Below the pieces are notes generated by a model. That model ran no database searches, had not been told where the DNA came from, and saw only the letters and a list, made by a program, of their open reading frames with translations. A DNA stretch of 29,843 nucleotides from Microthyrium microscopicum (lineage: Eukaryota): contig MU004231.1 of assembly GCA_010405405.1 (NCBI GenBank), positions 2,681,860 to 2,711,702 on the forward strand, given 5' to 3'. The first letter of the stretch is position 1; the number at the start of each line of letters is the position of its first letter. The translations under genes and the position numbers were made by a program. This document shows, piece by piece, positions 1 to 29,843 of this stretch.

Positions 1-1486
1 GTTATTATATCCTTATTTTTTCTATAACCTAAGGAAGTTATTATAAAGCTTCTAAGAATAGTATTAACTTAATTTAATTATCTAAAACTTCTTAAAAGTA
101 ATATATTCTTACTTTATAAAGTAGCCTAAATAGCCTAGTATGTAGTTTTAGACTACTTACTATATCTTTTAGAATCTTAAGTCTTAAGACTTCTTATAAA
201 GGATAAGATTATTTAATCCTATTTATAATAGCTCTTTCTTAAGCTAATTATATCTATAAATATACTAGTAGAATTATTAATTATAGGTACTCTTCTAATA
301 AAAGGGTTTAATAAACTTCTATTTAATATTATTAACTTAGAATATATATTCTTAGAGACTCTTCCTCTTATAAGGCTTTATTTTAGGCTTATCTTAGTTT
401 AAAGGTCCTAAGAGGGTAAAAGCTTAGCTTAAAAGATACTAATTAAGTCTTATTACGTTAACTTAGCTAAAGTTCTTTAACTCTTAGGTAGTTTTAAGCT
501 TACTAAACTAAATTGCCCTAGTTTTTACTATTAGCTCTTATACTTTAAGCTCTAGCTTCTTTTTATTAATAAACGTATTAAGTTTCTTTTTATAACGTAT
601 TATAAAGTTATTTTAAGTCTTTTTAGGCCTAAGTAGGTTAGGGTTAGCTAGTTTAATATTAAATAGATCTAATAGACTTCTAAATATATTAATTTAGGAT
701 ATAATAAGTACTAGTAACTCTTAGCCTAATAATTAAGGCTACCTAAGTTCTATCTAGGCGTTAAGGTCTAAATATCTATTATTAGATATAGTTTCTAATT
801 AAATAAAAGATAAAAATAATTTCTTTAAGTACTTAAGGGTTAAGAAGTAATTACTATATTAGAAATAGGTTATTCTAAGTAGGTAAAGACTATAATTATT
901 ATAGTTTAAGTAGATATATAAAAATAGAGATAAGAGTAATTACTAGGAAGTTACTTAGATCTCTATAATTCTTCTTCTTTATTACCTAGAGCTATAAGGA
1001 CTTTATTAAGCTATTTATATTTATAATAGGTCGTTATTAGTTAATCTAACTAATAACGCTTTATTCTACATAGATATATCCTATTAGTAGTTATCTTAAA
1101 CTAGAGGTTTCCTAGTTCCTAACAGGCGTTTTATATCTTCTACCCTTACTAACTCTATAAAACCTTAACGGATTTAGCTAGTTCTTTTAAAATACCTATG
1201 AAACCTATAATTTATACGTATAGGCGATATGGTAATAGCTACATTAGGCTAGATAGCTAGTAATCTATAAGGGAAGGTTAGACTTAGAGAATCTTATTGT
1301 TAGTTTTAATGTTCCTTGCTAAGCTAAGATCCCTATTAACTCCTACTAAAATTTGGCTCCCATCTAAGTAGTCCTAGCAGTCCTGGCAGTAAAGTACAAT
1401 CCGATAAGATTAGAGATAGACTAACGTCCAACGGTCCTAGTAGGGTCCTAGTAGGACTGCTAGCTAACCTAAACTTTTACCGATGT
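1..1486 (-). mobile_element. Unidentified RIP-mutated element; its right terminus interrupts the Helitron Rep frame
   Basis: Segment ~1180-1486 is less mutated (retains TG/CA, GG/CC), has repeated GTCCTAG(C/T)AG units, and ends where Helitron-like codons begin (~1500). A degenerate minus-strand frame seems to run from ~1150 to the window start but no family motif was recognised. Confidence 0.45.
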
Positions 1487-1499
1487 AGTTTAGTTAAAA

Positions 1500-4400
1500 T
1501 TTTAACTTTAGTTTAAACTATAAGTAAAAGGTCTTATTCTTTACTATAGAGGCAAATTTATTTATTATCCTATTTTTTTCTTCTTAATTTTTAATACTAT
1601 CTAAAAAGATTTAGTTAATACTATTACTTTTTAGAAGTTATCCTTATTAAGCCTATAAAAAATTAAAAATATTTTTTAAGATTTAATACTAGAATAACTT
1701 AAAGTAGTAAAGACTAAACTTATAGACTTATATATTATTAGTAATTTAACTATTTTATTATTACTTTAAGAAGTATTAAGTTATTTTAATAAATAACTAT
1801 TATCTAATAAAAGTTATATTTATATATATAAATAAATTAAAGTAATCTATATAAAAAATAATTTTCTAGGCATCTAGTTTACTATTAACCTAAATAATAT
1901 TAATAATATTATAAAATTATAGCTAGTAATATTCTAAGATTAAATATTATAATAAGTAAATAAATTTATAAAGAAATTAGAGACTAGTATAGAATAATTC
2001 TAAATTCGTATAAATATATAATATATACTAAACTTAGTTATATTTATATAATTTTTTTAAAAAGAAATAGAGCTCTTCTTTAAGTATTTTATTAAGATTA
2101 AGGATAATTTAGTTTTTAGTTATATTAATTACTATTTCTTAGTAATAAAAACTAATAAATAAGGATCTCTTTATACGTATAGCTTTATATAGTTTAAAAG
2201 TAACCTTTATTTTCTATTATTAGTAGAAACTTTATAGAATATAAATAATATAGATTTTAAAGATAAGTTTATTTAGTTTATTAATAAGTTAATATCTAAA
2301 TTAGTTATTCTAAGTATAGTAATAGCCTTAAAACGTATCCTAATAAATTTATTTAGAGACTAAAGGAAAGTTAATAAGTTTATTATAAACCTAAGTTACT
2401 TATCTATGTAATTTAAATTAGAAGTAAATCTATAGGCTAATAGTATCTAGATATATAAGTATATAAAAACTTATATAAAATATACTTCTAAAGCTATTAT
2501 ACTAGAAGTAGTTAGGACTAAATAGTAACTTTATAAATTCTATTTTTTTTAGCTATTATATAAGAATATAATAATTAAAGATAAAGTACTAAAAGTTATA
2601 TAAAATAATAATAGAGTAAATAAATATAATCTATTAATAACTATTAGCCTTTACTATAATATAAATATATTATTTATCTTATTTAAAGGTTATAGGCTAT
2701 TAATATTATTTTATATAATAAATTATACTACTAAAACTATAATACTAACTTAGAAGTACGTAGTAGTTATATAGGAAATATATATACTTATTAAAGAAGA
2801 AAGAAAAATAATTAAAAATAGGAAGATAACCTTATAGATAGTAAGATATATAATAATAAAGAGAGTAGTTACTACTAACTATATTATAGAGTTATCTAAC
2901 TTCTATTTACTTTCTTTAAAAAGTTATAAATTAGCTTACTATAGATTATTTAGTTTTATTTATAAAAGTTTATAACTTTCTTCTTAGTTATAGAATATAT
3001 TTTTTAAGCGTAGAAAATATAACTTAGTAATATATCTTACTTAACTTAGTACTCTATTAGAAAATTTATTATAAAAGTACTTTATTTATAGAATAAATAT
3101 ACTTAAAAATAAATATAAAACCTTAAGTTAATTTAAGTATTAGTATTAGAAAGATTAGTAAAATCTTACCTCTATTAATTATCTATAAAAACTATAGTCT
3201 AATATTTATAGTGCTAAATCTTTATAATTATACTATACGTATTAAGGTTATTAAGAAGAAGAAAAATAGGCCTATAATAATTAAAGATATTAATTTTTTA
3301 CTAAAGTTTATAATAGGATAAGAATAAACGTAAAGAATAATTCTATTTATAAAACTTTAAATTATTATCTTAAATAGTATTATATTCTATTTACTTAATA
3401 AACTATAAAATAATAAATATTACTAGAAGTATATTTAACTTCTTAATAATATTAAAGAAAAGCTAATAACTATATAGAAATATAACTCTTTATTTAGTAT
3501 TATTTATACTATAGAAAAAGTTTTTAGTCTTTAATCTCTTAGAGCTAAATATCGTTTAGATAAGTAAAAAGGAATTACTAAGTCTAAGAGTCACCTTTTA
3601 TATAGAAAATATTAAGAATCTTAGGAAAGCTAAGGAAGCTACTATAATAAACTATAACCTTTAGAAAGTATAAATAAATAATAATAGCATAAATTCTAGC
3701 TCTAAGAATTATAGTATATATAGTAATAAAGTCTTAAATATTCTTAACATTAATAATATTATAATTTTAAGTATTATAGTAATTTAAAACTAGCTATTAT
3801 AGTCTTTATAACTAAGAAACTTAGAAGCTAATTTCTTTACTATTTATAGTTTTATAGGTAAGCTTAATTCTACTATAGATAACCTTTATATATCTTTTAG
3901 TAGTATAGATATTATATAATATATAAGAAAGTTCTATAATAAAGTAGATCTTAATACTACTAGATTAGCTAAGACTATATTAGATAGAATAAAATTATTA
4001 AAAAGAGTATAGAATAAACTAAACTAAAGCGTTATTATATAAAATAATAAAGAAGGAATTAAAGATACTATTTAAAATTAACTTATTACTTATTTATTTA
4101 GACCTCTAAGTTCTTTAAGACTATAAAATATAATATTAAAGTTATATATAAACTTTTTTAATAATTATCTTAACGCGTTAATTAATAGCTATAAAAGATA
4201 AGGTCTTAATAAATTATAAAGCTAAGCTATAATAACTATCTTTTCTTTTTTATATTAGTACTAAATAAAAAAAATTAAGATTAAGGATTTATATAAATAA
4301 CTTTTTATATATATTAGTAGTACTAGTAAAATAAAAAAATTATAAGTTATTAATGCTATCTAAGATATTTTTAATAAGTTAAAGCTTTAAGAAGAAATAA

Positions 4401-5820
4401 TAATTACTACTTCTACTAGAAGTATAGTAGCTAATATTTAAAATTTAACTATTTATTTAGTATTAGGTCTTTTATTTAGAGATACTAGTAATATATTAAC
4501 GCAATATAACTAAGAAAATAAGCTAAGTAAATAAATAAATACTATTTCTATTACTTAATTAGCTAAAAAATAAGTATAGGAGAAACGTAAACTTCTTATT
4601 ATTAATAAGATTAGTATAATTAGTAAAAAAACTTTTTAAAGTATTAACTTAAAATACTACTTACTAGGTAAGAAGCATATTTTATTTAGAGAGATTTCTA
4701 TTATACTTCTCTATAGTAATTTCTATTAATTTTTACTAGTTAGTTCTATAAGTATAATGTAGATAAGTAGTAATAGTTAAGTAGTAGAATAAAACTAAAA
4801 AGTATAACTATTTTATTAATTTAATAACGTTATTATACTTATAAAATAAGTTTATATATAAAATTATTAAATACTCTTAGGAATACTTAAAAGGCTATAA
4901 AATAAGCAATAAATAGACGTAGACTATAATCTTCTCTTAGAAAAGATAAAATATTCTTAAAATTAAGACTTTATAACTAAACTTCGTATAATTATAGTAA
5001 TAAATAAACTAAAAGTAATTTTTAATATTAAAGTAGCTATTTAATACTTAGAGAAATATTAGCTTCTTTTTTTAATTTTCTTCTTAACGTATACGTAGAA
5101 AGATATTTCTAATTTAGAAACCTAAGTACTAATTACTTATAACTTAATAAATACTACTATTAAAAAATATCTTAATAAGACTAGTATTAAAGTCTTACTA
5201 TACTTTATATTTATACTAAATATCTCTATTATAACTATAAATAATATTAATATTAGCTTAATATTTATAAATAGAGCGTAATTTATAACTATTATAATTA
5301 TTCTAGATAAGAGTTATTTAAGATATCTAATTTCTAAGCTTATTATAATATATTTTAGTCTACCTATAGCGCTAGTTATAAAATCTAAAGATACTAAGAA
5401 CCTATAGGTTAGACTTCTTTTGCTAGGAATTATTATAATAATACTAGAATCTACTATTTTTATAATAAAGGATAATATTAAATATATAAGGAGAAAACTA
5501 CTATATATTTCTTTATTTAGCATAATAGTATATAAAGCTTAAGGGTATATATTTTTATAAACCTTTATTAATTTACTATATAGTAAGAATTTATAAGGAA
5601 ATATAGTAAGATATAAATCTTCTATTCTTAGGACTAAGAAGTCTAAATTACCTAGATTTTATAGTTTTTATATCTAGCTATCTTAAGCTATAAGTTAGGA
5701 AGATATATAGATTTCTAACTTATTAAGTTAAGAGGCATTTAAAAATTATAAAATACTTAGGTTAGTATTATAAAATATTTAACTTTTAAATAACTATTTA
5801 ATTTAGACTTTAAAGGAATT
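1500..5820 (+). mobile_element. Helitron Rep/helicase pseudogene (HUH endonuclease + PIF1 helicase), RIP-inactivated
   Basis: De-RIPped by eye, one frame gives HGGKFARHP (~1545-1571), GIWFTINPND (1869-1898), VETNERGSLHAHGFVW (HUH motif, 2145-2192) and FYxTNYATK (2709-2735). A second frame gives Walker A GGAGGTGKS (4316-4342), TASTGSAAANI (~4403-4437), Walker B LLIIDEISM (4592-4618), PFGG...GDFYQFPPV (4682-4741), TVYKAQG (~5525-5545) and YVQLSRA (5669-5689). Order matches Helitron RepHel proteins. Confidence 0.9.
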
Positions 5821-6387
5821 TATTAAAAAATGCTCCTAGTCTAAATATAGAGTACTTTATAAATAGTATTACTAATACTAAACAAAATTAAAAGATAATA
5901 TTTAACGTTATAGTAAGAAGATACTTAAAGAGATAAAAAATATAGAATATAAGTTATTATTTACTACTTCTTTTATATTTATGCTTAGGCTAGTTATTAA
6001 TTATCTTTAGTTAATCTATTCTATTCTCTTCTATTACTTATCCTTATTATTTTTATTCTTATTCTTATTTCTTTTTATATTATAAAGTATAGTTCCTTTT
6101 ATTATATTTTATACGCGCTAGGTTCTAAGAGTCTTAGAAGTTACTTATAAACTATAACTTATATTATTTAATATACTAATAGACTTTAAAGGTCTTAGTT
6201 TTTTTAAAGTCTATAAAGAAATTAGTAAATTAAGTTATTTATAAGGATTAAGACTTCTAAAAGACTAAGATTATTATATAGACTAAGTAATAATAAAAGA
6301 ATTTATATAAGTTATTATAGATTAAGGAGATAAAATAAAAGAATTAGTTCTAATAAGGCTTAAGGCTATATCTTAGAAATATTAAGC

Positions 6388-6490
6388 TAAATTAGTACTA
6401 GTAAAACTTAGTACTATACTTTAAACGTAATAAAGTAAATTAGTACTAGTAAGACTTAATACTATACTTTAAACGCAATAAGGTAAATTA
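6388..6490 (+). repeat. 48-bp tandem duplication (2 copies plus a partial)
   Basis: 6388-6435 and 6436-6483 differ at only 4 positions, all transitions; unit length is a multiple of 3. Confidence 0.9.
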
Positions 6491-9400
6491 CTTCTTAGTA
6501 TTACTAATAAATAAATATTACTAGACGTTAGAGCGTTACTATAGCTACTATAAGGGAAGCTATCTATAGTTAAGTTAATAATAGTAATTTAAGAACCTTA
6601 ATAAGAACCTAAAGTTTAGTTATTTTATAAGTTAAGTAAAGGTAGAATATAATAGTAAGTAGTAATAGAGCTAAGAAAGTTTAAAGAATTAGTATTTTTA
6701 GTAATATTAGTATTTTTTACTATACTATATTAAGTAGATAAAAATAAATCTCTTATTAAGTCTAAGACCTCTATATATCTAGTACTAGAATTAGTAGAAT
6801 ACTATTTTAAAGCTATTATTTTACTTTATAGTAGGTAAAATTTTAGTAAAGAATTATAGAATAAAAGAAAGAAGAAAAGAAGAAGTTTAGAGAATAAATA
6901 TTAGAATAAGCTATAGCGTCCTTAGGCTTCTATATTTTTAAAGTAATCTCTCTTCCTATATTAGTACTATTAATATAACTAATAACTATTTATAAATAGC
7001 CTCTAAAATATACTTACTATAATAAGAAAGAAGTATAACTAACCTAATACCTAAGATTTAAAAGTATAAAATAATCTAATTAATAAATTAGAAAGTTTAG
7101 CTTTATACGTAAAAATTAATAGCGCTAGCTCTTAACTTTATCTAATTAAAAAAACTTTAATAATTAGCCTTATAACTATTTACGTACTTATTAAGCGCTA
7201 AAGCTTCTACTATAATAAACTAATTATAATTTCTACGCTTAATAACTCTTACTAATAATTTATTTATACTTTACTAAATATAGATATTTTAGTAGAGTAC
7301 TTACCTTTTTAAAGTAAATTTAATAGATAAAATATTAAATAATATTACTTACTTATAATTATATAATAATAAGCTAGTTATAGCTTCTAACTACGTAATC
7401 TTATAATTAGAACTTAGTATTATACCTTTCTTTCTAATTTTTTAAGCTTCTATCTATAATAACCTACTTTTATAGAGACCTAAAGTAATATCTAAGCTTT
7501 TAGTTATTTTACTTCTTTACTACTTCTATAAATTTAAATATCTTACTACTCTTCTTTCCTTCTTCTTCTTCTTCTTTAACTTTAATCTATATATCTTATA
7601 TAGCCTACTATTATTAAGATTATATACTTTCTACTACCTCTCTAAGTTCCTTAGCTATTCTTAACTTTAATTCTTTACTTAATAATCTACTAATTTACCT
7701 TACTATAAGTACTAATTACGTTTTTTTTTAGTAAACTAATACTAATATTCTAATAAGTAATATAGCGCTATTATTTATACTAACTTCTTAAGGTAGTATT
7801 TCTATACTAGCTACTAAAGCTAGTCTTATAGATTAGATGCCTAGCTAACTCTTTATTTATAACTTTACTATCTATTCTACTACTAGCGCTAGTATTAAAG
7901 AAGTTATTATTTTACTTAATTAACTATTTTAGTTTCTCTATACTTCTATTATATATGCTTCTTACTTAAAGAAAGATACTATATAATTAAAGTACTCTCT
8001 AGATAACTTTCTTATAAATTTTTCTTCTAGTATTGCCTTAATCTATATTATTATTAAATCTATATATAAAGCTATTATAGATAGCTATCTCCTTTTTTAT
8101 AGTAAAGCTCTTTATAGCCTTTAGGTTATTACTTAAGCTATATTAGATACTCTAGTTAGTACTATCTTTAGTATAAGTAAAATAAATTTTATAAGTATTA
8201 TATAACTAAATTTTTTTGCTAATAATTTAATAGAACTATAACTACGCTATAATAAACTTCTTTACTTATAAGTACTTCTTTATTACTATATACTAAGATA
8301 ATATTAATAAAAATAAGTACTTAGGATATACTAATACTATTTTTAATAATAAAGTTCTCTATTACTCTAGCTAAATAACTATTATTAGTAGTAACTTACC
8401 TTATAGTAATTCTAAGGAGGACTTTATTAAAATTAATTAATTTCTTTTATAGGTTCTCTTATTTAAATTAATAAGAAATATTACTAGAATAAGTTATTAG
8501 TTATCTAAATAAATTATATCTAAGCCTTTTGCCTATAAGCTTTAAGCTCTAAGTTCTTTTCTTTATAGAAAATTAATAAATTCCTTTACTATAAATATTA
8601 TATCTACTTTATATACTTTATAACTTTCTATAAATTTAATTTGCTTATTAGTAATATAAAAATCTTATATTCTTACTTAGAAAGTATATAAGTTAAAAAA
8701 AAGGTAATTACTATAATACTACTTAAAAATATAGCTATACTATAAAATAGTATACTTATAGTTTATAAAGAATAAAACCCTACTTATAGCTATTAGTAGT
8801 AAAATATTATAGATAAGTAAAATAAGCTATAATATATTTAGCGTAACTATAACGTATTGTAATTATTATAACTATTTAGAATACAAAACTACGTAATTAA
8901 AGAGTTAATTTATCCTAAAAGCCTACCTATTTCTACTCTCTATAATAATACTAGAGAAATAAATCTATAAATAAATATACTATAAATTACGTTTAGTTAT
9001 TAATATAATCTATATTTTATACTAAAAAGTTAAAGTATTAAAATATATAATTAAAATAGGAAGGATTATATAAAAATAAAGAGGAAAAAGTAAATAGGAT
9101 AATACGTTTATTATTAGTATAACTATTTATAGCGTAAACTCTTAATATTATGACTTCTATAAAAATATAGAAAGTTAATAAATATATATACGTTTACTAT
9201 AGATAGAAGCTTAAACTACTAAGGAGTAGTAATAAATTACTTACTTACTAGTTACTAATTTACTCTTTGCTTATAATAATAAAAAAATACTTTATAAATA
9301 CTTCTTTACTAACTATAACTTATACTCTTCTACTATTATTAATATATAAAGTAGTCTATTAAGACTATTAGCCCTTACTAATAGCTTCTCTAAAGCTAAC

Positions 9401-10728
9401 GTTACTATAAAATAGTAAACTACTATACTATATAAATTAGGCTAGTAGAAAGGAAAAGAAGTCTAATAATATATACTAATATAGAAGAATATTAATCCTA
9501 TTTCTTAAGATTAATAAAATTATTATATAAGTCTATATTAGCTAGTGCCTTAAAAATTTATAAGTTTAATAATACGTAATAAAATTAGTAAGTATATCTA
9601 ACCTTAAATAATAGAAGGTTAAAATATTATAATAGTTTAAAATATATTCTTAGAGTAAAATATTTCTAATTACTTACTAATATATTTACTTTTACGTAAA
9701 TAAGATAGCTATATTTAATAAGTAAAGATAAGTAGTTTTTATAAGTTACTAGGTATTTTACTTTCTTTTCTTATACTATATATAATAATATTTTATAAAA
9801 TAGCTAATATTACTATATTTTTAGAACTTACTAAAATATAGAGAATTAAGCCTTAAATAGATTCTTTTATATAAAAACTTACTATATTAGAGCTTTTCTA
9901 TAAGATTTGCTACTAAATCTTTTATAACTAAACTATTATTTAATATTTTTCTAAGAGAGATATAAAAAGATACGCTAGTAAGTAAGAGCTTTATTTATAA
10001 TACTAGGTATATAACTAATATAGTAATAGATTTATAAAGAAAATAAAAGTAATAACTCTTTACTTAATTAATCTAAGTAATTATTTTAACTATATATTAG
10101 ATACTACTACTTATATATTTCTATTAAAGTCTCTATATACTAATATCTAATAGTAGAATTATTAAAAATACGTACTTATAATATAAATATATATAATCTT
10201 AGATATTATTTATTAGATATTAAAAAGTTAGGAAGACTAGTTAACCTTTATATAGAGCTAGCTTTAATACTATAATACTAAGATATAAAAGATAGTAATA
10301 GTATAGATAATAATAAGGTAGAAGAAGAGAAAAAGGAAACTAATAATAACTTTAATAATTAATATTAGTAATTAGTAGTAGAAATATATAATAGTAATAA
10401 AATAGTTAATATAATTAAGATAGTTAATAATAATTAATATCTTTAGTAAGTTAAACCTTAATTAATAGCTTATAGCTTAAAAGGGACTAAAGGATTAAGA
10501 TAGTAAAACTAATTAAAGGTCTTACTTTAGGAATTAATTAGAAAGACGAAAGAATAATTAATTAAAGTATAACGTAGGGCAAATCCATTTCTAGGTAGAA
10601 AACTTACTAACCTCCCTTTTTCCTTTTTTTACTAATACTATCCCTTCCAAACCTATAGAGGTTCTTCCAGGCATATGAACGCGAACAACAACGCAAGGGA
10701 TTGTCTCTTTCAACCTAGCTCCGGGTAG

Positions 10729-14400: not shown

Positions 14401-15692
14401 CGTCGGCTTCGCAAGCGAGTGCGTTGGGATCCTCAAGACCGTCTCTGCTCTCAACATGGAGCCACTCGTAGAGAAGAGGTTCGCAGCACTACTTTCGGAG
14501 CATTGTACAAATGTGGCCCGCTACCAGATAGTTGCTATGATCTGGTTTGCGCTTAGCGAATCTATCGAGCTGTTGTGCATGGCATTGGCATTTTGGTATG
14601 GCATACTGCCTGAAAATATACTCTGCTAACTGTTCAAAAGGTATGGGGGACGTCTCATGTCTTTTCACGAATACAACACGACTCAGTTCTTTACTGTTTT
14701 CGTGGCCATTATATTCGGGTCGCAGTCAATGGGGCAGTTCTTTGCCCATAGTTCCGGTATGTCGCTCTCAAAGTGCTTATATGTGTCAATCCTCTAAACA
14801 TACACACTGTCCAGACATGTTCAAAGGCCTTAGTAGTGCTAGAACAATTCTTTCGCAGTCTGCGGCTCCTCACAACCATACTGCAAAGCTACCGCTTCCA
14901 CAACTAGACGCACTGTCTTCAAACACGCCCTTGATCGAATTCCGAAATGTCTGTTTCTCTTATCCTACTCGGCCAACTATCCCCATCCTGCGCAATCTCA
15001 ATCTGAAAATCTATGCGGGGCAGTTTGTTGCGCTGGTCGGCTCTTCCGGATGCGGCAAAAGCACCGTTCTTCAGCTTCTCGAGCGCTTCTACGAAGTAGA
15101 AAGTGGCGACATTCTAATCGGAGGCGTCTCAGTGAAGAACCTTGAGGATTCTGATGTCCGCAAGCTCTACTCCCTCGTCAGCCAGGAGCCGACGCTGTAC
15201 TCCGGAAACGTTCAATACAACACCTCACTCGGCGTAAGCGGTTCGCTTGACCGCGAGAAGCTGGATCAAGTGCTGAAGCAAGCCCAGCTCTCAGAATTCA
15301 TATCCTCCCTCCCAGAAGGTATCAACACCGAAGTCGGTGCCAGAGGAACCGCATTGAGCGGTGGACAGAAGCAGCGTGTTGCGATTGCTCGGGCTCTTGC
15401 GCAGGATTCTGCTATTCTGCTGCTGGACGAAGCAACGTCTGCTTTGGACAGCAACTCGGAGCGAGAGATTCAAAAGGCAATAATCAACGGGCAAAATGGT
15501 GGTTCTTCGGAAGTGGCTGTAAAAAGGACGGTGATTGCGGTTGCCCATCGACTGTCGACCATTCAGCATTCTGATTGCATTTTCGTTTTCGACCAAGGAC
15601 AGCTTGTCGAGACAGGAACTCACCATGAGTTAACAGAAAAGAAAGGGGTTTATTGGTGTCTCTGCAAAGCTCAAACAGGGTGGATAGAATGA
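11449..15692 (+). CDS. Full-length ABCB (MDR/P-glycoprotein-type) ABC transporter, ~1288 aa, 8 exons: 11449-11580, 11645-11832, 11886-13005, 13056-13782, 13833-14008, 14066-14595, 14641-14756, 14815-15692
   Basis: TMD-NBD-TMD-NBD layout; IGAGTILPLMTLIFG in TM1; Walker A GPSGCGKST and GSSGCGKST; LSGGQKQR twice; LDEATSALD twice; AHRL switch twice. All seven introns are GT-AG and the joined length (3867 nt) keeps frame. Confidence 0.93.
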
Positions 15693-16348
15693 TAATCTCT
15701 AGTATTCAATCGATGTATATGGTACACAGTCGATGATCGTTCTAGACATTTTCGATGCTACTTGGTTGAGCATCAAGAGAGGCGTAAGAGGCGTTTGATT
15801 TTGTGCAACAGTGCTTTTGAATTCCGGAAAGCGTGTACAGTTAGTGACAGAGGCAAGTTTTAGTTCAAGTTGTATCAGTCTATCAGAGCACGAGAAGTTT
15901 GGACTGGTATACCCCAATGGATGTCACGTCTTGTCTCATGTGATGTGACTTCTAAAACTTGATTTTCGATTGACAGAAACCGACCATTCTCAGAATCTAC
16001 ACTTTCACCTGATGACAATATCGTATTCAGGAGTGATTTGTCCGATCACGGAGTGCGTCCGGCGACCTAGTGAGGCATGTTATACTAGGTAGGTATGTAA
16101 AGAACTAAAGTCGAGTCTTTTCTTGACTAACATCAATCTACTCTGTATTGTGAGATTGCAGAAGTGGGTGAGTTAGTCTATCAGAACGAAAAAGCCGGAC
16201 ACCGATTGTGCAAGGCACTTGTAGTGTACATAGGACCATTCAGTCCCTTTCTATCTGCAAACAAAGCCACAATGAGCCCAGTATCCGGCGATCCGAACAC
16301 CCACCCAATTCGCTATGCAAATGTGGTACTACTTCTATAAAACTTTGA

Positions 16349-18520
16349 TCACTGCCATCCACCACTCTCAACGACCATCGGCTTCATCCCCATCAACCTC
16401 CGTAGCGATAGCCAGGACTCATAGACACTCAACTTGAGTTCAACCCTCGCATATCTCGCAAACGCACTGAGGAAGCGCAGCAGATTACGCGGCCACAAGA
16501 CACTGCCTGATATACCTTCTAGTTCCTCCGAGTAGACACACCGCGAGGCGTAGCGGCCGAGAATTAGAAAGGTACGGGCGGAACCTTGGCGGGTATGGAG
16601 GTTGTCGTCTAGTGATCGCGCTGTAAATTGTCAGTATTTGTTGTTCAAATAGATGCTGGTAAAAGGGTTTTTGTGGGAAAGATGCGTGATGGGAAGGAGG
16701 CTGTGCGGATGAGGACGAATCTGATCCGCTGCCATCCGAATGGTGTTGCGGTGCATTGGATAAAGCTCTGTATGCCAGAATCGAGTGACACTGTAATAAC
16801 TGCCAATTGATCCGCAAGCATTCCCAGGGACTACGCATTGATAGTCCAACAATGCTGCTAACGCGCCGCCATCCACAACAGCATCAAACCTCCTCAACCT
16901 AGACCACTAAAGAACGAGAGGGACAACTTACTCAAATCATTCGTCTTCAGCACCAACAACAGCACCCTCGGAACCTGCGCCAACAACCTCGTCAACTGAC
17001 TCAACAACCCACCCTCTCCAAGTGCCTGCCCCATCGCCTTCTTCTCATCCTTCTCTCGCACACTCGTCACCCCGGCCCCCGGATCGCTCAACACACTAAA
17101 GTCTCTTCCAGTAATCGCACTAGCAAACAACTCAAAGTGCTCATCGCTAATACCCGCAACCTCCTTAGCATAAGTACGCATCCTCGGTACATCATTGTCC
17201 AGCACGGCCAGCCAGAGACGCGCATACGCATGTCTCAATTGACTGGGCAATTCGCGGTATAAGCCATGGTCGTAGAGAACAACGTCAAAGTTGGCTTTTT
17301 CACCCCAGCGCTTCCGTCGATGGCGGATGGCGATGTTGCCGCCGTGAGGGTCGCAGTGCAGTGGTGCGCCTTCGCCAAAAATCATTTCGTTGAATATGCG
17401 TGCTAGGGCGGCGGAGACTTCATCGCGGTCGATGGAGTGGGAGTCTAAGAAGTCGAGATCGTCGGGTCTATGGCCGGGGACGTACTCCATGACGAGGATA
17501 CGGCGCTGGGCCCAGAGGACGCGGGGGATTATGACGGGTGCGTCGGGCACGTGGGAAAAGTATTCGCGGGCGACGGTCGCGTTGTGGGCTTCGTGGGCAA
17601 AGTCGAGTTCTTTGGGGAGACTGACTTCCATTTCTTCCGAGAGCCAGGTAAGGTCATATTCGGGGAACCAGTAGGCGAGAGATTCAAAGGAGAAGCGTGT
17701 GAGAGCGAGGTCAATGTGTGCCCATTCGTCTAAGGTGGGATGTTGGACTTTGACGGCGACGCGCTCGCCAGTTTCGCGAATGGTCGCGCGATGGACTTGG
17801 GCGAGGGAGGCGGCGCCGATGGGGAAAGGTTCGAATTCAGAGAAGAATTCGTCGAGGGATTTGCCAGTATCTTTAAGGACCATGGCTTTTATGCTGTCGA
17901 GAGAAGAGACGGGACATTTATCTTGGAGTGGTATGAAAGTATCACACCACTCTTTCGGAAGCAGATAGTTCATGCTGCTGAGATGTTGACCCAATTTGAT
18001 GAAAATCGAACCATTCTTCTCCAACGCCGAGAGTGTTCTTTCCGCGCTCCTCTTATGACATGCTTTAAGTAGCTCTTCAAACTCCTCTGGCGACACTTTC
18101 TCGTCCATCTTCAGTGTCTTGCGATAACTGCAAACCCCGTATGATTAGCCTCCAGTTCCTCTCAAGAAATCGACCAACCTACTCAGAAATACACCAAAAC
18201 AACGTATCCATAACCCTCCAAGTCCTCACACCTGCGCGCGAATAATGTCTCCCGGGTTCAGTAAACGCAACCAAGCTCGCCACTCCTATTCCACCACCCA
18301 GTATCAGCACCCATCGCCACAGCTTGCGATTCTCGCGAAACAATGCCTCTATGCGATCGCGCGAGACTTGAAAGTCGGCCGCTCGTATACTAATCGATCT
18401 AGTTTGTTTAGTGCGGGAGAGAGGAGGCCGTGTCCAGACGGTTGCCCGATTGCGCAAAAGACATGTTCGGCATGTCCACATGGACGAGGAGGAGAAGAGC
18501 GGTTTGAAGGACGGTGGCAT
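16349..18520 (-). CDS. ABC1/UbiB family atypical kinase (ADCK1/Mcp2-like, probably mitochondrial), ~601 aa, exons 18520-18183, 18127-16932, 16620-16349
   Basis: Motifs FIKLGQ, LQDKCP, GAASLAQVHRA, VAVKVQHP, ELDF, HCDPHGGN, YDHGLY; Arg-rich N-terminus. Splicing gives SDYRKT and KTNDLTRSLDDNL junctions; joined length 1806 nt. Confidence 0.92.
16694..16895 (-). ncRNA. Candidate intronic structured RNA, H/ACA snoRNA-like
   Basis: Within a 311-bp intron: four successive hairpins, an ANANNA box (ACACCA, 16746-16741) between the last two, ACA (16704-16702) directly after the last hairpin, and a flanking GAGGAGGUU/AGCCUCCUU stem. Confidence 0.5.
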
Positions 18521-19128: not shown

Positions 19129-21297
19129 TCATGGACCGACGTCGCTAACCCATCCATACTGTGGGCCTGCGTCTGACGATTGGCCATTCCATTGCTCCTC
19201 GTCTTCATATTCGCTAGCATCAAACGAACTGCGTCCACTATGTGCGTCTTCAATCTCATCTGGACCATTCGAAGGCAAATTGTCCCAGATGCCGCCCAAA
19301 GTTGGATATTGCTGGAGTAGTGCCGCAGGTAGGCGAACTTGCATTTGAGGTGGAATTGCCATACCAGGCTGAAATTGGCCAGGTTGGGAAACATTGTATG
19401 AAAAGCCACCGGCTGGACCCATCATCTGCTGTTGACCTGGCATAGGCATAATAGGAATACCAAGCTCAGAGCCTGGTTCAGCCTGTGGCTGGTGGCGTTC
19501 CAGAGCCTCTTCGTCCATAAGCGGCTTAATACAAACACGTCCCGCCTCACTTCTGAAATGGCGACCGAGAGCATCGGCGCGGGCAAATCGGCGTCCACAG
19601 CCCCAGTTGTTGCCATCCTTGAGATTTCCTCGGCATACGAACTTCTTTTCGCCGGAATGGAGTCCTTCGTGACGTTTGCGATCGTGTTGGCGTGCAAAAG
19701 CCTTGCCGCAGTGACTACATACAAATGGGCGCTCATCTGTATGAGTGCGCAAATGCGATCGCAAGTTGTAGGCTCGAGTAAATCGCTTGGGACATAAGCT
19801 GCACTGGAATGTTGCGGGATGTTTTTGAGTGCGTTTTGTGGCGCTTCCAGACTCGTTGGAATTTGCTGATGCGGGACGGGATGGGTCGGCAAGATCGAGG
19901 ATGTAATCGCGGTTTCGGACGTCAGAGGCAGATGATCGACGAGTCTTGTTCGAAGGTGATGGTGAGCGAGACCCCACACCAGCTCTGGCTGGGGACAATA
20001 GGTCGCGCTGGACGTCTCGGCCGGGAGTTGAGCCTCGAGAGCTAAATGGGTCGGACTTGGCACGGCCACGAGCTATAAAGTGTGAGATAAGGCCATCAAG
20101 CAAATGCGAATTAAACTTACACTTCTCTGGAGGACTTAAAGCGTCAGCGACTTTGCCTTCTACTGGTGGCTCAAAGCTAGCTTGTCTTGATGGTGGAGCC
20201 AATTGAAAAGTAATCTCAGGAGGTGTCATGGCATCAGCATGATTTGGATATTCCTGATGATTCATGGTTGGCTGTCCCATGTTGGTATAGTCTCCGCCGC
20301 TTGAGCTTGGAAGAACGTATTGTTGAGGAGGCATCAAGCTAAAGTTACTTGTATCAGGGTAGGATGGGATGGAATGCTGTGTAGGAAGCAAAGCGGGAGA
20401 GATGTGAGGACTATGAGCTGGGCTTATGTATGAAGCTGCGGCCTCTGAGAGAGAAACATGTCCAATGCCCATGACATCGTGGAACATGTTGGGGTCCTGA
20501 GCATTGAGGTTGGGAGAATGGTCAATAGTCTGGCCAAAGTTATCGGAAGCCGGAAGATATGGTGATTGATGAGCGGAAGAGATTTCTGAATGGGCATCCG
20601 AGTATGTTCTTCGGTGACCTTGGAAGGCAGCACTGCCGCCCCACTCTCCTTGTCCTTGAGGGAAAGCCGCACTCGAAGGGTCAAGCGACTGCTGTCGCGA
20701 GTGTGATGGTGGTGGCGTTCGAAATTGGCCTTGGTTCATTGCTGGTGAGCCGTGAGGGCTGCTATGCTGGCGATGCATGTTGGGCGCAAGAAGATGTGGT
20801 GGCGTAGGGGCAGAGGTGGTTGCCATTTGATCAGAATTGGATTGTGAGAGGGATTGCGAAGGTAGCTGTGGGTCGAGCAGGGCAGGATCCAAGACACTCG
20901 AATCTATAAATGAAGAATTGTCTGTAGCGGGCGCGAACAATGGACCATCGAAGGTAGAGTCACCGAGCACAGCGTTCGCGTCGAAGTTGATAAAGTCGGG
21001 AAAGGCAGTATTGCCTTGTCCGTTGATACCCAGGGTGTCGGCGGTGGAGGTCTCAGGGTAGAGACTGGTATCAAAGCTTCCGTTGAAAGAAGGCTGCTGT
21101 TGTTGCGAGGCAGAGGGAGCAGCGAATGGGTTGTAGTCGTTACCGACGGTCGCAAAGGATGTTGATTGAAGGTCAAGAGAGGTGCCGGCGGTAGTAAAGG
21201 GATGATTTCTATAGACTGGAGCAGGTGATGCAGCTGGAGTATGCCTTGCTGAATGATGACCGGCTGAGGGAGATCTTCCCCTCTGTGAACCCTCCAT
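19129..21297 (-). CDS. crzA: Calcineurin-responsive C2H2 zinc-finger transcription factor Crz1/CrzA, ~706 aa after removing a 48-nt intron (20073-20120)
   Basis: Diagnostic fingers [35 protein letters not shown]...[25 protein letters not shown]; Ser-rich regulatory region; PxIxIT-like PEITFQ calcineurin docking motif; GTAAGT...TAG intron. Confidence 0.95.
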
Positions 21298-23926
21298 GGC
21301 GGAGGATTTATATAGGATATAAGAGTGAAGTCAGAAGAGTTGAGGCTGCGGCGGTAGGCTTCTTTTCTTAGAGGCCGGAGAACGGGAGAACTAAAGGGCG
21401 CTCGGGCCGTATAAACGGGCAATGGAGCTTGGTCGCAGAAAGAGGTACTGTATTGTGACGTCTGATAGTAGCCAGCGAATGCACGTCGAGTATCAAGTAG
21501 ATCGGACGAGGATGGGGAATATTGGGTAAAGGAGGCTGAGTAACTATCTACAAAGAGAAGAGTGGGCAACTGGGCATGCACGATGGAGGTGATGGGGGGC
21601 ACTGGGGGCACTGGGGGAAGTAGCGACCAAGAAGCCCAACAACGAGATTGGAAGGCGGGAGGGAGGTTTTGGCGGTCCGTGTTCCTGGTCTAAAAGGCCT
21701 GATACGAGCGAGGGTTCAAAGTGCCCTTTCAGAAAGAGGTACCTCTCATTTGCTACATCATACACACAAGACAGAGGTACCAGTTTCGCACAGAATACGG
21801 AGGCATTTGGAGGCAGGTCGTTGTTGCTGCGCCCCGATGCTGCGCCTTCTCTTTAAACTACCACTACGAATACTTTGAAACACTCAAAACACCGATTTTA
21901 ATCTTTCTATCCATGAACATAAACGCCATTGTAGTTAAAAAAAGAATCACTTTGATTGTCTGCTCAAAGCTCTTTCAAAATGTTATTTTTACAGCCATCG
22001 CAATTGCAGTTTCATCAGTCATGCCACCTCTGTCAAACGTTCTTGATGCTATTTTGTGCTTACTACCTCAGCTCTGTGCTCTTACAGGTAACAAGTCAGT
22101 GGGGGCCGAAACCAACTACTTCCTAGCTAATTATCCCCCGAAGACTAGAGTTAAAGGTAGCGTGGCAATTATCACTCGTGGCCAACAACTCCATTAGCCT
22201 TCCCTGACTTTGATACATCATACAACTTCACTTATGCGGTGAGAAGATCTGCCATTGTGAGAATGATATCCTAGTCAGGCTGGTCCAAATCGCGTGCCAT
22301 CTCCAACCCTTTCTGATTGACCGGCTTGCCCCATCTAATCAGCCAGTGATAATTATTTAGTTCCTACATCAAATGGTACACAAAACGGTGTAAGACTAGA
22401 CATGCGTGCCAATCGCTCAATCATACATTTCCAAACCAACCGTCCGGGAACCACAAGTGCACCGCGCCTCAAACCGAACCCTTCCAGAAAAACCCACTAT
22501 GCAAATCGTCAAGGTACCAAGCTGTAGCCCTGGAGATGTTGTGTACGATAACCACAAGCCATGGATATCGTGCAGAAAGTGAAGCATGGACCCCCAGAAA
22601 GCTGTGCTCAGCCTCACTCGAAATGGCAGCAAAAAATATCGACCGTTGGGCAAATTAGCTTGATCGCTCCCCTGGGGGCTACGGTGATTGGTCAATAACC
22701 TGGAGCATGACAGCTAAATTAACCCGTTTGGGGAGCAGTCTTGTTCCAATTTTGGATCATGGACCTTGCTGGTGATCGTGGCCATGAACATTTGTCGTTG
22801 TGTGTTTCCAGAAACAGAACTGGTATCTAGTCATTCGGGCTAGAAAGCTTCTTTCCTCGGCTTACGGATGGGTTCGGGGTGAGTGGAATGTTCGGTCAGC
22901 TCTGACGAATTGAGGAATTGCTCACGCATGAATTGTCGCTGGATTCTTTGCGTCTGCAGATGTAGAGTAATTGGGATTTCTGTGATTCTGCCTTAGCACC
23001 GCCACACATATTCAATAATTGCTCAAATTCGTATGAATGTAGAGCCAAAAGAGGCGCTAGGCAACCAGGTATCTGTGGCTGCTAGTTTTCTTATCGTTCT
23101 ATTGGTAGGTTGTTGGTGTACGTGTTGGTGCTTGACCGCTCCTTGGAGGTTGGACTCCCTCAACGTCCTTGCAAAGATGCGGTATGATGCTGTTGTCTGT
23201 CGCATTACTCTCCCTTCTTCAATGCATCATATCTTGTGGATATTCAAACATCTGGATACTCTGACCTGGACATCTAGATATCCGAAAACTGCCTTGTCCT
23301 ACGACATTCCATGATATTCGGTCAACGGTCCTCATCAGCTTGAATGGTTCGTAAGGCATCTGTCACCACATATCCCATGCTGCTCTTTTATTGAATCAGG
23401 AACTTGCAAACCTTGCTTCAGCTCCAATGGTTCACAAGGCATTCGTGGGAACCTGATTCATTATCGGATCCTGCCGAATCCACGCCCTCTCTGCAGACTG
23501 TCCGAGATTCGAGATCTTTGTATGGTTGAACACTACTCTTTGGGCTTTCGCTATCGACGTACACTACAGACCGTTAAAAGGCAGTCTGCAAATCTTTATG
23601 ATGCCAAGTCCATATCCAAAGTTGGCTGACATGCTGTTAGATCATGGATTCAGAGAAGCATTGCAGTACAGCCCGTATCATTTTATGCCTTGGCCTTGTA
23701 CTCTGGACTCGTTTGCTTGAGGAGAACCATAACATCCCCCTTTCGTCTATTACTCGGGAAGATTTACCTACTATACGTTATGATACGGTAAAATGGGGTA
23801 TCATAGGCTGGATTGTTCGTAGTCGCTGGCAAATGATACGACCTTTCCAGAGGAAGCTCTTCAACTTCTTTATCTCGAATTGGAAAAGATGGAAAATGAG
23901 CACGCTACCTACCTGACAAAAGCACT

Positions 23927-27421: not shown

Positions 27422-29843
27422 CTTCTTAAGTTTTTAACCTATAAATCTTAAGATATACTTAGTATTAAGTATAAAGGAATATTAATTTTTAGGTTTTCTA
27501 AAACTAAGCTACTAAAATATTAAAACTAGTTAAAATAGGAAATAAAAAGTACTATTAGGTAGCCTTAGTATAGAAGATTTAGCTTATATAAAAATATAGG
27601 AGATTTAGCAATTTATAGTAGTAATAAGAGTATTTATAGCGTTCTAGGGAGAATCTTCCTAAGCTAGCACTAAGTACTCTATATTTACTAAATTTAGCAT
27701 CTTTCTAAACTTTTCGTATTCTTATAGAGAAAGAGCTTTTATTAAACTATTTACTAGTATCTTGCCTATAAGAACCTATTTAATGAAGATGTAGCCTTTT
27801 ATAACTTCTTAATAAAGCTAGAACTAATATATATTAATATATTTTAATCTAGAAAATAAAAGCTAAGCCTATTTCGTCATAATACCTATTATTTAAGTAT
27901 TATTATTTAATATTAGTATTTTAATATTAGGATTAAACTTAAGCTATAAGAAGAGGCATTAGATTAAGATTAGCTCTTTTAAAGCGTTTAAGAGGGATAG
28001 AAGTTCTACTTTTATTATAGATATTAAGACTATTTTCTAGTATAAAGATTACTAGCTAATAAGTTCTCTAAATAGGTTAAATAAGAAGCTCTAAATTAAT
28101 CTTTAAGTCTCCTAATTATCTATAAATATAGTATTATAGGCTATAAGAAATACTTCTTTGCTAGTAATAAGTGCTTTAGTAGTTCTATAATACTTAAGCG
28201 TAAAGTATTTTATTACTTAAAGATATAGAATAGTTTTCTTAATCTTGTAATAGTAAAGCTTAGAAGGATTCTAGTTAAAGTAGCTTAAATAAGAGGCTAT
28301 ATAATAGATATCTAGCTTATATACTATTATAAGGTAAATTATAAAGCTATAACGTATTTAGAAGGCGTAGATCTAATCTTTAGATATCTATTCTTTATTT
28401 AAAACGAGTTTGATAAGATTTAAGATAGGAATAATGTATTTAGTCTTCTTTGTAATATTAAGCTAGAATTTAGCGCTAATTTTATTAATATACTAGTTCT
28501 ATAAAATTTAGAGCTTTTAATTAGCTTAATCTTAAAGTATTTAAATATTAAGAAAGCTTTTTAGAATATTTAAATCCCTTATAGTATAGCGTATACTAAG
28601 TTTATATTTTATCTTATCTACTTTTACTTAATATACTTTTAATAAGAGAAGGAGGAAGTTATTAACGTAATAAAAAAAAAAAATAGGATACTAAATATAT
28701 TTAAAGAGGTAAAAATCTTCTAAAATAAGCTTAAACTTTATTATATAGAGGGTAGCTCTTATATCTTAATACTATAGTAATAAAGATCTTAGTAGTCTAT
28801 AGAGGGTATAGCGAAGTAGTAAGACCTTTCTAAGAATATTAAAACCTTTAAGGCATTAAACTAGAACTATTTTATTTAGAATAGTATTTAGAAAGGTATT
28901 TATAGCGTTAAATTAGTAAAGATCTAGATTAAATATAGCTATTAGCATAAGAATTATGCATAATATATAGTAAGCTTTAGTAGTAGTATAAATCTCTAGT
29001 TCTAAATTTTAGTACTATAAATCTCCTTTTATATAGATTCTAGCCTTATATTTAAGAAGGAAGCTATTTAAATCGTATTTCTCTAAGAATACTTACTTTA
29101 AAGATAGAATAGGCTTATTAGTTTAAAGGGTATAGACCTTTTTAAATGTACCTTATTTTTAAAGTGTTTTAATTTTAATTCTAGTAGCTAAAAGATACTA
29201 GTCTTAATTAGGGCGTTTTATTATTTTAAACTACGTTTTTAATAATTCTAGCATATCTCTTTTATAGTAGCGTTAAACTAAAGCTATAGAAAATATATAA
29301 TATAATAAGGTAAGGAGGTAAAGTTTATAGAGTGCTAGATTAGTAATCCTTAAAGATTATAGAATATAACTACTTTTTATAGCGTGTATAGAAACATTTT
29401 AAAAGGCTTAGATCTCTCGTTCGTACTTAGTAATATATTATTGTTTTAGGTAAGCTATTAAGGTAGCTAGTAGTAGTACTAGTAGAATTATAAGAGTAGG
29501 ATCTTCTAAAGTATTTTCTCTTAATTTAGTATAATCTTAAGTAAATAACGGACTTATAAAGAGTATTAAATATTATAAAGAAGGCTAAGATAGTAGTAAT
29601 AGTATAGGATTAGGCGTTATTAGCTAGTCGTTAAATATAGGTTAATTAGAATTGTTTTTAGAAGTCTAATAGCTATCTTATTTTTACTATTAAGTACATC
29701 GTGAAAAAATTATCATTGATTTAAGTTATCCAATAACACTATAACTACTTATTACTATAATACGTAGTCCTATATCTAAGTACTTAACTTAACATCTAAT
29801 TCGTTTAAAATATATAGAATAATTAAAATAAATTTACTAATTT
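27179..29843 (-). mobile_element. Ty1/Copia LTR retrotransposon relic (RT and RNase H), RIP-inactivated, runs off the window end
   Basis: De-RIPped minus strand: LKWVF...KYKARICVKGDLQ (~29015-29105), HQFDAINAFLN (~28885-28918), ALYGLPRSPLLW (~28772-28807), YVDD as TAC GTT AAT AAC (28669-28658), SDAAFADD (~28115-28140), HIDIHQFWLRQE and MPADGLTKAL (~27731-27760), stop ~27659. Confidence 0.93.

Follow-up and report, generated by a model that had tools for sequence, protein, structure and literature searches.

Long introns of Saccharomyces, those of RPS17B, RPL7B and others, carry zipper stems (Rangan et al., 2025; PMC12350175), and according to the same work not every yeast intron stem promotes splicing. 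Introner-like elements exceed regular introns (50–55 bp) in length and show stable predicted structures, as described in two van der Burgt/Collemare reports (PMC3609843 and PMC4457414), the latter of which also records parallel gains at sites occupied in other species. The symmetrical sister (stw)introns, of ~93–207 nt, pair their two ends according to Fekete et al. (PMC8469720). Intronic box H/ACA snoRNAs of fungi follow the order hairpin, ANANNA, hairpin and ACA on the transcribed strand, and orphan H/ACA RNAs restricted to a genus or a species are on record among them (Canzler et al., 2018; PMC5824354).

The intron analysed here belongs to a gene for an ABC1 atypical kinase (Pfam PF03109 ABC1, E 1.6e-69) encoded on the minus strand of a 29.8-kb window, that is, the whole stretch of DNA under analysis (29,843 nt). 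The product of this gene is 100% identical to an annotated protein (P0001, 601 aa) whose source is named by NCBI as Microthyrium microscopicum, a Dothideomycete. An RNA-derived contig (run X1) joins 16932 to 16620, skipping exactly 311 bases (CT..AC on the plus strand), and P0001 reads ...LKTNDLTRSLDDNL... across the junction, in agreement with the contig. The presence of a 311-bp intron at this place in the ABC1-kinase gene, as claimed from the sequence, was therefore confirmed both by the contig junction and by the protein. A second piece of contig (16165–16620) extends the transcript past the stop codon to ~16165. Run X1 carries the same species label and consists of contigs, none of which covers 16629–16871, and no RNA data set was listed for sequence words of the intron; both results are uninformative on small RNA.

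The intron interrupts a Thr codon, starts with GTAAGT, carries the branch-like motif TACTGAC at 16636–16630 and finishes with CAG. The features of a U2-type intron were thus all found, namely GT...AG borders, a branch motif close to the 3′ end and loss of the intron from the mature RNA. Because the donor-like site and the branch-like motif are both single in the whole 311 nt, this is one canonical intron, and a stwintron (nested introns), in which an inner intron with a donor, branch site and acceptor of its own splits a splice signal of the outer one, was rejected on the same grounds. It is a genuine and exactly spliced intron of unusual length, ~6 times the usual one; the range of 45–64 bp claimed for all the other introns of the window held for the sole other intron checked. 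The coordinates of the gene, the intron and the elements discussed below are shown in Table 1.

Table 1. Features of the ABC1-kinase gene and its second intron (positions in the window; MFE helix positions in intron numbering).
Feature	Position	Strand	Basis or remarks
Last exon, coding part including stop codon	16349..16620	−	ORF 16349..16630; tblastn of P0001 residues 512–601
Second intron, U2-type spliceosomal, phase 1 and 311 nt long	16621..16931	−	Splice motifs; contig; protein
Branch motif TACTGAC (16636–16630) and 3′ strand of terminal helix (16632–16623)	16623..16636	−	Sole branch-like motif; MFE helix
C/A-rich 3′ arm, partner of 5′ arm	16640..16701	−	MFE fold; 50-nt-block composition
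ACA triplet, one base past hairpin D	16702..16704	−	Intron has 9 ACA triplets
Hairpin D (33 nt), putative 3′ hairpin whose sole internal loop is 2x2	16706..16738	−	−13.0 kcal/mol isolated; no pocket
ACACCA, fits ANANNA	16741..16746	−	Intron has 3 ANANNA matches
Hairpin C, putative 5′ hairpin of H/ACA RNA	16746..16817	−	−17.4 kcal/mol isolated; internal loop 25 nt from H-like box
Local hairpin containing hairpin B (16847–16828)	16817..16856	−	MFE stem 76–91/98–115, mean pair probability 0.88
G/U-rich 5′ arm, four helices with 3′ arm	16865..16915	−	Mean pair probabilities 0.39–0.60
5′ strand of candidate zipper stem, partner 16652–16670	16886..16905	−	Published zipper-stem definition (PMC12350175)
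5′ splice site and 5′ strand of terminal 10-bp helix, partner 16623–16632	16922..16931	−	MFE helix 1–10/300–309, mean pair probability 1.0
Exon 2, ABC1 atypical kinase gene	16932..18127	−	PF03109; contig piece 16932–18127; tblastn of P0001
Other intron of the gene, 55 nt	18128–18182	−	Skipped by contig of run X1

The predicted folding energy of the whole intron exceeds chance, with z values of −2.65 for global shuffles, −2.6 for shuffles in 60-nt blocks and −2.35 for those in 30-nt blocks, and with 0–2 of 200 shuffles as stable as the intron. When 39 other segments of 311 nt from the window were folded, no z value of −2.4 or lower was obtained (minimum −2.23, median −0.28). The apical 151 nt gave a z of only −1.44, and in the modelled fold the excess stability resides in long-range pairs and not in the apical hairpins. 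In the MFE fold, the 5′ third, rich in G and U, and the 3′ third, rich in C and A (composition by 50-nt blocks), are joined through the helices 17–25/284–292, 27–46/262–280, 47–60/238–251 and 62–67/231–236 (intron numbering), and the helix of highest certainty, the terminal one, contains the 5′ splice site itself. Pairs spanning at least 150 nt amount to 52 in the intron compared to 18 ± 9.6 in global shuffles, only one of which (1/200) reached that number. Even with block shuffling, which preserves the G/U-to-C/A gradient, 33–38 long-range pairs were obtained, with 52 reached by 3–13 of 150, and therefore base composition alone accounts for much of the end-to-end pairing. The G-U pairs had also been claimed to work on the transcribed strand only, but by energy both strands behave alike (−94.0, z −2.40 for the minus strand vs. 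−97.3, z −2.60 for the plus strand).

Within this fold, a 17-bp stem whose linkers measure 26 + 21 = 47 nt (mean pair probability 0.57) agrees in position with the published definition of zipper stems. Some zipper stem appeared in 33 of 200 shuffles and one as stable as this in 8 of 200; the Microthyrium stem is a prediction. As reported for the zipper stems of yeast, its sequence is not conserved among relatives. Unlike the Saccharomyces cases, the host is a filamentous Dothideomycete with usual introns of ~55 nt, the gene does not encode a yeast ribosomal protein, and the pairing consists of five helices that reach the splice sites themselves.

Among the orthologous metagenome loci, 7/17 have an intron at the identical codon and phase and 10/17 have none. 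These orthologous introns measure 59 nt (L001 and L002), 101 nt (L003–L006) and 52 nt (L017, counted by hand). When the 311 nt were compared by blastn with all 19 loci, nothing better than E 3.2 was obtained, the orthologous introns being unrelated in sequence; the relatives are distant, as the loci compared share 59–75% protein identity and the nearest available relatives 75–79%. Conservation was absent from the seven orthologous introns at this site (52–101 nt), and the extra sequence of the Microthyrium intron is absent from the relatives found.

On balance, and with modest confidence, we favour an ordinary U2-type intron that was lengthened in this lineage and in which pairing from end to end would bring the splice sites close to each other. 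The intron site would predate the lineage and the intron would have grown here to 311 nt, its 5′ and 3′ thirds pairing into a putative rod with a branched tip, and it would give no separate RNA gene product. By analogy with Saccharomyces, from which the helper role is taken over, the fold may form in the cell and aid splicing. One option of the sequence-only reading, a structured element controlling splicing, fits, in its structural part, the above-chance end-to-end pairing, whereas a role in control is what we infer from it.

In canonical H/ACA RNAs, 14–16 nt separate the top of the pocket from the H or ACA box downstream of it. The pocket matches the surroundings of a uridine of rRNA or snRNA in two parts, and the RNA accumulates as a discrete species together with Cbf5, Nop10, Gar1 and Nhp2. 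The sequence-only reading had put forward an RNA of this type, and all 17 motifs it listed are present where it placed them, including GAGGAGGUU/AGCCUCCUU at 16895–16887 and 16702–16694; its hairpins A, B, C and D also fold as claimed when isolated (−12.7, −7.4, −17.4 and −13.0 kcal/mol, respectively). Inside the whole intron, however, hairpin A gives way to long-range pairs and hairpins C and D are weak, with mean pair probabilities of 0.22–0.45 (0.22 for hairpin D). We regard it as very improbable that 16817–16698 encodes a lineage-specific intronic box H/ACA-like RNA (hairpin C, ACACCA, hairpin D and ACA), which would be freed once the excised intron is debranched and trimmed. The boxes and hairpins do stand in the correct order on the transcribed strand, as in the intronic box H/ACA snoRNAs, with a single layout of two hairpins, ANANNA hinge and ACA on the minus strand and none in the plus-strand scan, and such a layout is not trivially expected, because hairpin-ANANNA-hairpin-ACA with an equally low summed energy was found in only 5 of 300 shuffles. 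The box matches are nonetheless cheap, because ANANNA occurs three times and ACA nine times in the intron, and position 2 of the H-like box is C, in contrast to the G of ~80% of fungal H boxes (PMC5824354). Moreover, the 120-nt candidate does not fold better than its shuffles (z −1.56, 14 of 200 being equally stable). Its pocket is also misplaced with respect to known intronic H/ACA snoRNAs, since in the modelled fold 25 nt separate the H-like box from the sole internal loop that is large enough. The 3′ hairpin, of 33 nt, is too short and lacks a pocket; opening the 5-bp helix 16807–16803/16759–16755 would provide hairpin C with a pocket of 10 + 12 nt at 17 nt from the H-like box, close to the canonical value. 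Neither a family match nor conservation was found, and the orthologous introns are too short to contain an RNA of this kind. Rfam gave 0 matches in the whole window at the gathering threshold and, in E-value mode (E<=10), no match on the transcribed strand inside the intron; the sub-threshold matches (four in 16400–17100 and four with the intron alone), to mir-238, Lambda_thermo and archaeal sR2/sR30/sR41, were far under their gathering scores and were read as chance. In the literature on snoRNAs in introns of Dothideomycetes, no intron RNA of an ABC1-kinase gene was among the matches listed, and for Microthyrium microscopicum nothing on introns or snoRNAs was among the matches listed. A snoRNA inside the intron is thus not supported, as nothing tested demonstrates one. 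A box C/D snoRNA (C box RUGAUGA and D box CUGA separated by 55–220 nt, with a terminal stem closing the structure) was rejected as well, the minus strand having no C-like box at <=1 mismatch and the plus strand having C-like boxes only at 35 and 12 nt from its single CUGA. A tRNA-derived SINE was likewise discarded, as ARAGORN found no tRNA in the window.

A different origin appears unlikely, namely the decay of a self-propagating intron or an inserted mobile element that left the whole intron, or just its additional ~250 nt, with the fold as a relic; candidate sources would be introner-like elements and the symmetrical 'sister' introns known from Dothideomycetes and Hypoxylaceae. The host belongs to the class in which introner-like elements were first described, and the intron resembles both kinds of element in being a canonical U2 intron that is longer than regular ones (311 vs. 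55 nt), more stable (z −2.35 to −2.65) and with stable predicted end pairing; being long, folded end to end and dissimilar to the short introns that its relatives carry at this site, it would also fit the parallel gains at occupied sites mentioned above. However, a site common to 7/17 orthologs is not a new position and favours an old intron, and 311 nt exceeds the reported elements, being far above the 'about twice as long' given for introner-like elements in PMC3609843. Nested splice signals and a significant terminal inverted repeat are also missing, the best alignment of the arms being a 10-nt terminal match equalled by 434 of 1000 shuffles. The inverted repeat of sister introns spans ~45–55 nt when such an intron is aligned to its reverse complement (PMC8469720), and nothing comparable was found here, where that alignment scores 17, a value equalled or surpassed by 255 of 300 shuffles. 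Numerous near-identical copies in unrelated genes of one genome are the hallmark of both kinds of element; within the window, no second copy or fragment was detected (best E 0.32). A MITE-like insertion was rejected because inverted repeats in 16600–16950 are of just 9–11 nt and the arm alignment is not significant, and a duplication of nearby sequence because there is no match elsewhere in the window. A Microthyriales-specific functional RNA module, either an orphan H/ACA-like RNA with a short non-canonical 3′ hairpin that is processed from the excised intron or the founder of a new, unusually long self-pairing introner-like family in this little-sampled order, is in our opinion quite improbable. 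Regarding function, little credence is given to the structure acting as a brake and not as a helper, with splicing being tunable and retention yielding a transcript with an early stop at 16894–16896. The terminal helix, with its pair probability of 1.0, covers GUAAGU and the branch adenosine, the exon 2 reading frame would stop 12 codons into the intron if continued (ORF list), and yeast too has intron stems that do not promote splicing (PMC12350175); but the one RNA-derived contig examined was fully spliced, near-consensus splice signals are involved in 6 of the 10 pairs of the terminal helix, and the 5′ splice site is transcribed ~300 nt ahead of its partner and therefore U1 could probably bind first.

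With a lengthened ordinary intron as the favoured reading, no new RNA class is added by this locus. What it offers is a documented fungal intron of ~6 times the usual length that is still exactly spliced and whose ends are predicted to pair, and hence a test case for whether the 'zipper' logic of yeast serves filamentous fungi with very short introns, which bears also on how old introns lengthen. If the small-RNA or the introner reading were true, the intron would represent a snoRNA specific to the lineage or a new family of introners, respectively, in an order from which just one genome has been sequenced.

As shown in the table below, the 601-aa protein of the ABC1-kinase gene maps back to the window as three exons. 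The protein search returned it at 100% identity, under the NCBI name of a Microthyrium microscopicum ABC1-domain protein, with a second-best match at 79%. In the upstream open reading frame (16894..18144), Pfam recognises an ABC1 atypical kinase (PF03109, E 1.6e-69). A 2053-nt contig from X1, an RNA-derived set listed under the same species label whose data kind is given as a guess, omits exactly 16621-16931 (311 nt; CT..AC on the plus strand) and also a second intron of 55 nt (18128-18182). As both introns are absent, this contig was derived from spliced RNA; therefore, the 311-nt intron and its exact borders are real, and are demonstrated rather than inferred. The minus-strand sequence across the intron is ...AAT GAT TTG A|GTAAGT ... 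TACTGAC AATTTACAG|CG CGA TCA..., so phase 1, with a Thr codon cut after its first base, and the protein reads LKTNDLTRSLDDNL over the junction. The sequence-only reading, which had placed a 311-bp intron in an ABC1-kinase gene, thus agrees with both the spliced contig and the annotated protein; as an observation it was largely right, and all 17 of its motif strings were found where it had located them.

Coordinates of the host-gene exons, predicted hairpins, same-site introns of relatives and neighbouring features
Feature	Position	Strand	Length	Remark
Exon 1	18520-18183	minus		ABC1 kinase
Exon 2	18127-16932	minus		ABC1 kinase
Exon 3	16620-16352	minus		ABC1 kinase
Hairpin A	16886-16850	minus		-12.7 kcal/mol alone
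Hairpin B	16847-16828	minus		-7.4 kcal/mol alone
Hairpin C	16817-16746	minus		-17.4 kcal/mol alone
Hairpin D	16706-16738	minus	33 nt	-13.0 kcal/mol alone
Same-site intron, L001 and L002			59 nt	
Same-site intron, L003-L006	about 3943-4043 (L006: 1596-1696)		101 nt	strongly C-rich; loci near-identical
Same-site intron, L017			52 nt	manual count
Stretch with a seeming extra short intron, L017	about 1085-1183			by eye
ABC transporter frame	14541-15692	plus		C-terminal nucleotide-binding domain
C2H2 frame	19129-21330	minus	733 aa	three zinc fingers near C-terminus
AT-rich blocks	1-10500; 27500-29843			GC 0.17-0.30 per kb

The ABC transporter frame, with Walker A and signature motifs in its translation, runs towards the ABC1-kinase gene. 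X1 contigs of opposite strands share 30 nt (16165-16194), a 4284-nt plus-strand contig stopping at 16194 and the 2053-nt ABC1-kinase contig at 16165, so that the two convergent genes seem to overlap at their 3' ends. The C2H2 protein presumably resembles calcineurin-responsive factors of the Crz1/CrzA type. The AT-rich blocks flank a gene island of ~17 kb (GC 0.45-0.55), contain all 20 of the direct-repeat families listed for the window, and look like decayed, RIP-like repeat DNA.

Taken whole, the intron has a modest but genuine excess of structure, with z -2.65 against global dinucleotide shuffles (0/200 equally stable), -2.6 against 60-nt block shuffles (2/200) and -2.35 against 30-nt block shuffles (2/200), and none of 39 other 311-nt minus-strand segments from the gene-rich part of the window was at z <= -2.4 (minimum -2.23, median -0.28). 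The excess structure is outside the parts needed for an H/ACA RNA: the apical 151 nt reached z -1.44 (17/200 shuffles equally stable) and the 120-nt module from hairpin C through ACACCA and hairpin D to ACA + 3 reached z -1.56 (14/200). The comparison with shuffles, named earlier as one that could refute the reading, favoured the whole intron but not the module. Each of hairpins A to D forms its described pairings when folded alone, but when the full 311 nt are folded (minimum free energy, minus strand, -94.0 kcal/mol, z -2.40), hairpin A is lost because its strands take other partners, and the mean pair probabilities for hairpins C and D are 0.22-0.45. The fold of the plus strand is no less stable (-97.3, z -2.60), so that the energies do not carry the claim of a structure specific to the transcribed strand.

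The predicted fold is a rod, five helices joining intron positions 1-67 to 231-309, with 52 pairs (6 of them G-U) spanning at least 150 nt. Global shuffles gave 18 +/- 9.6 such pairs, 52 being reached in 1/200. The intron has a G/U-rich 5' half and a C/A-rich 3' third, and block shuffles keeping this gradient already yield 33-38 long-range pairs, reaching 52 in 4/150 (60-nt blocks), 3/150 (30-nt) and 13/150 (15-nt); therefore, base composition accounts for much of the rod and the remainder is modest. Within the predicted fold, a 17-bp stem (16905-16886 with 16670-16652, linkers of 26 and 21 nt) agrees with the rules for zipper stems, known from long Saccharomyces introns, in PMC12350175, which describes the yeast stems as poorly conserved in sequence. 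Some stem of this kind was present in 33/200 shuffles and an equally stable one in 8/200.

When metagenome contigs were scanned with the protein of exon 2, 19 loci were obtained. Of these, 17 are orthologous, with identities of 59-75%; both flanking exons were placed on them by tblastn and the junctions then read. An intron is present at the identical codon and phase in seven and absent from ten. The structured intron was not conserved among these 17 loci, the seven introns being unrelated to it and 52-101 nt long; the 101-nt form is roughly double what is common for fungal introns. Blastn of the 311-nt intron against all 19 loci gave nothing better than E 3.2, and its extra ~250 nt were not seen in any of the 17, a comparison with distant relatives (the next protein in a large database is at 79%). 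Short introns at the same site, including the 59-nt form of the two closest loci (75% identity), argue that the site predates the lineage. In L017, a small exon is seemingly left between the shared-site intron and the extra one, which seemingly ends just upstream of the site.

The sequence-only reading had proposed an intron-encoded H/ACA-like RNA. Rfam at gathering thresholds returned no match in the whole window; E-value mode yielded four weak matches within 16400-17100 and four when the intron was searched by itself, all far below gathering scores and none on the transcribed strand inside the intron. A scan for hairpin-ANANNA-hairpin-ACA found a single layout on the minus strand, the plus strand having none; some layout occurred in 37/300 dinucleotide shuffles and one of equally low summed energy in 5/300, the best point in favour of that proposal. 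Box matches are cheap in the intron (three ANANNA, nine ACA). The canonical distance from pocket to box is 14-16 nt, and in the predicted fold the one internal loop with room for a guide pocket sits 25 nt away from the H-like box; opening the 5-bp helix 16807-16803/16759-16755 would give a 10 + 12-nt pocket at 17 nt (manual count), which apparently comes close without fitting. Hairpin D has a 2x2 loop only and no pocket. Position 2 of the H-like box is C, whereas in fungal H boxes it is G in nearly 80% of cases (PMC5824354). With no Rfam family, an unexceptional module, a displaced pocket and no similar intron in relatives, an H/ACA RNA is unsupported and improbable. A box C/D snoRNA was rejected, no C-like box being found on the transcribed strand at up to one mismatch. 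Antisense to the intron, weak sub-threshold matches on the plus strand (16675-16746) to archaeal C/D sRNAs sR2, sR30 and sR41 and to mir-238 were read as chance because C-like and D boxes are merely 12-35 nt apart.

Regarding other origins, the intron is not a nested (stw)intron, as it has just one donor-like and one branch-like motif; no tRNA-like element was found in it, nor any copy or fragment of it in the rest of the window (best E 0.32). Symmetrical sister introns of Hypoxylaceae are marked by terminal inverted repeats of 45-55 nt (PMC8469720). In contrast, gapless inverted repeats within 16600-16950 are only 9-11 nt, aligning the 5' 80 nt to the reverse-complemented 3' 85 nt recovers only a 10-nt terminal match (equalled by 434/1000 shuffles), and the whole intron scores under the shuffle mean against its own reverse complement; as these alignments are no better than shuffles, such repeats are absent at the DNA level. 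The introner-like elements of Dothideomycetes, multi-copy, stably folded and about twice regular intron length according to PMC3609843 and PMC4457414, are loosely matched in length and fold.

The alternative proposal of a structured element fits the pairing of the whole intron above chance; that the fold forms in vivo and benefits splicing is what we infer. Its most certain helix, which takes in the 5' splice site, could instead act as a brake by competing with U1. Most likely, an old intron was lengthened in the Microthyrium lineage, and we interpret it as a long self-pairing spliceosomal intron, a fresh instance of an already-known type.
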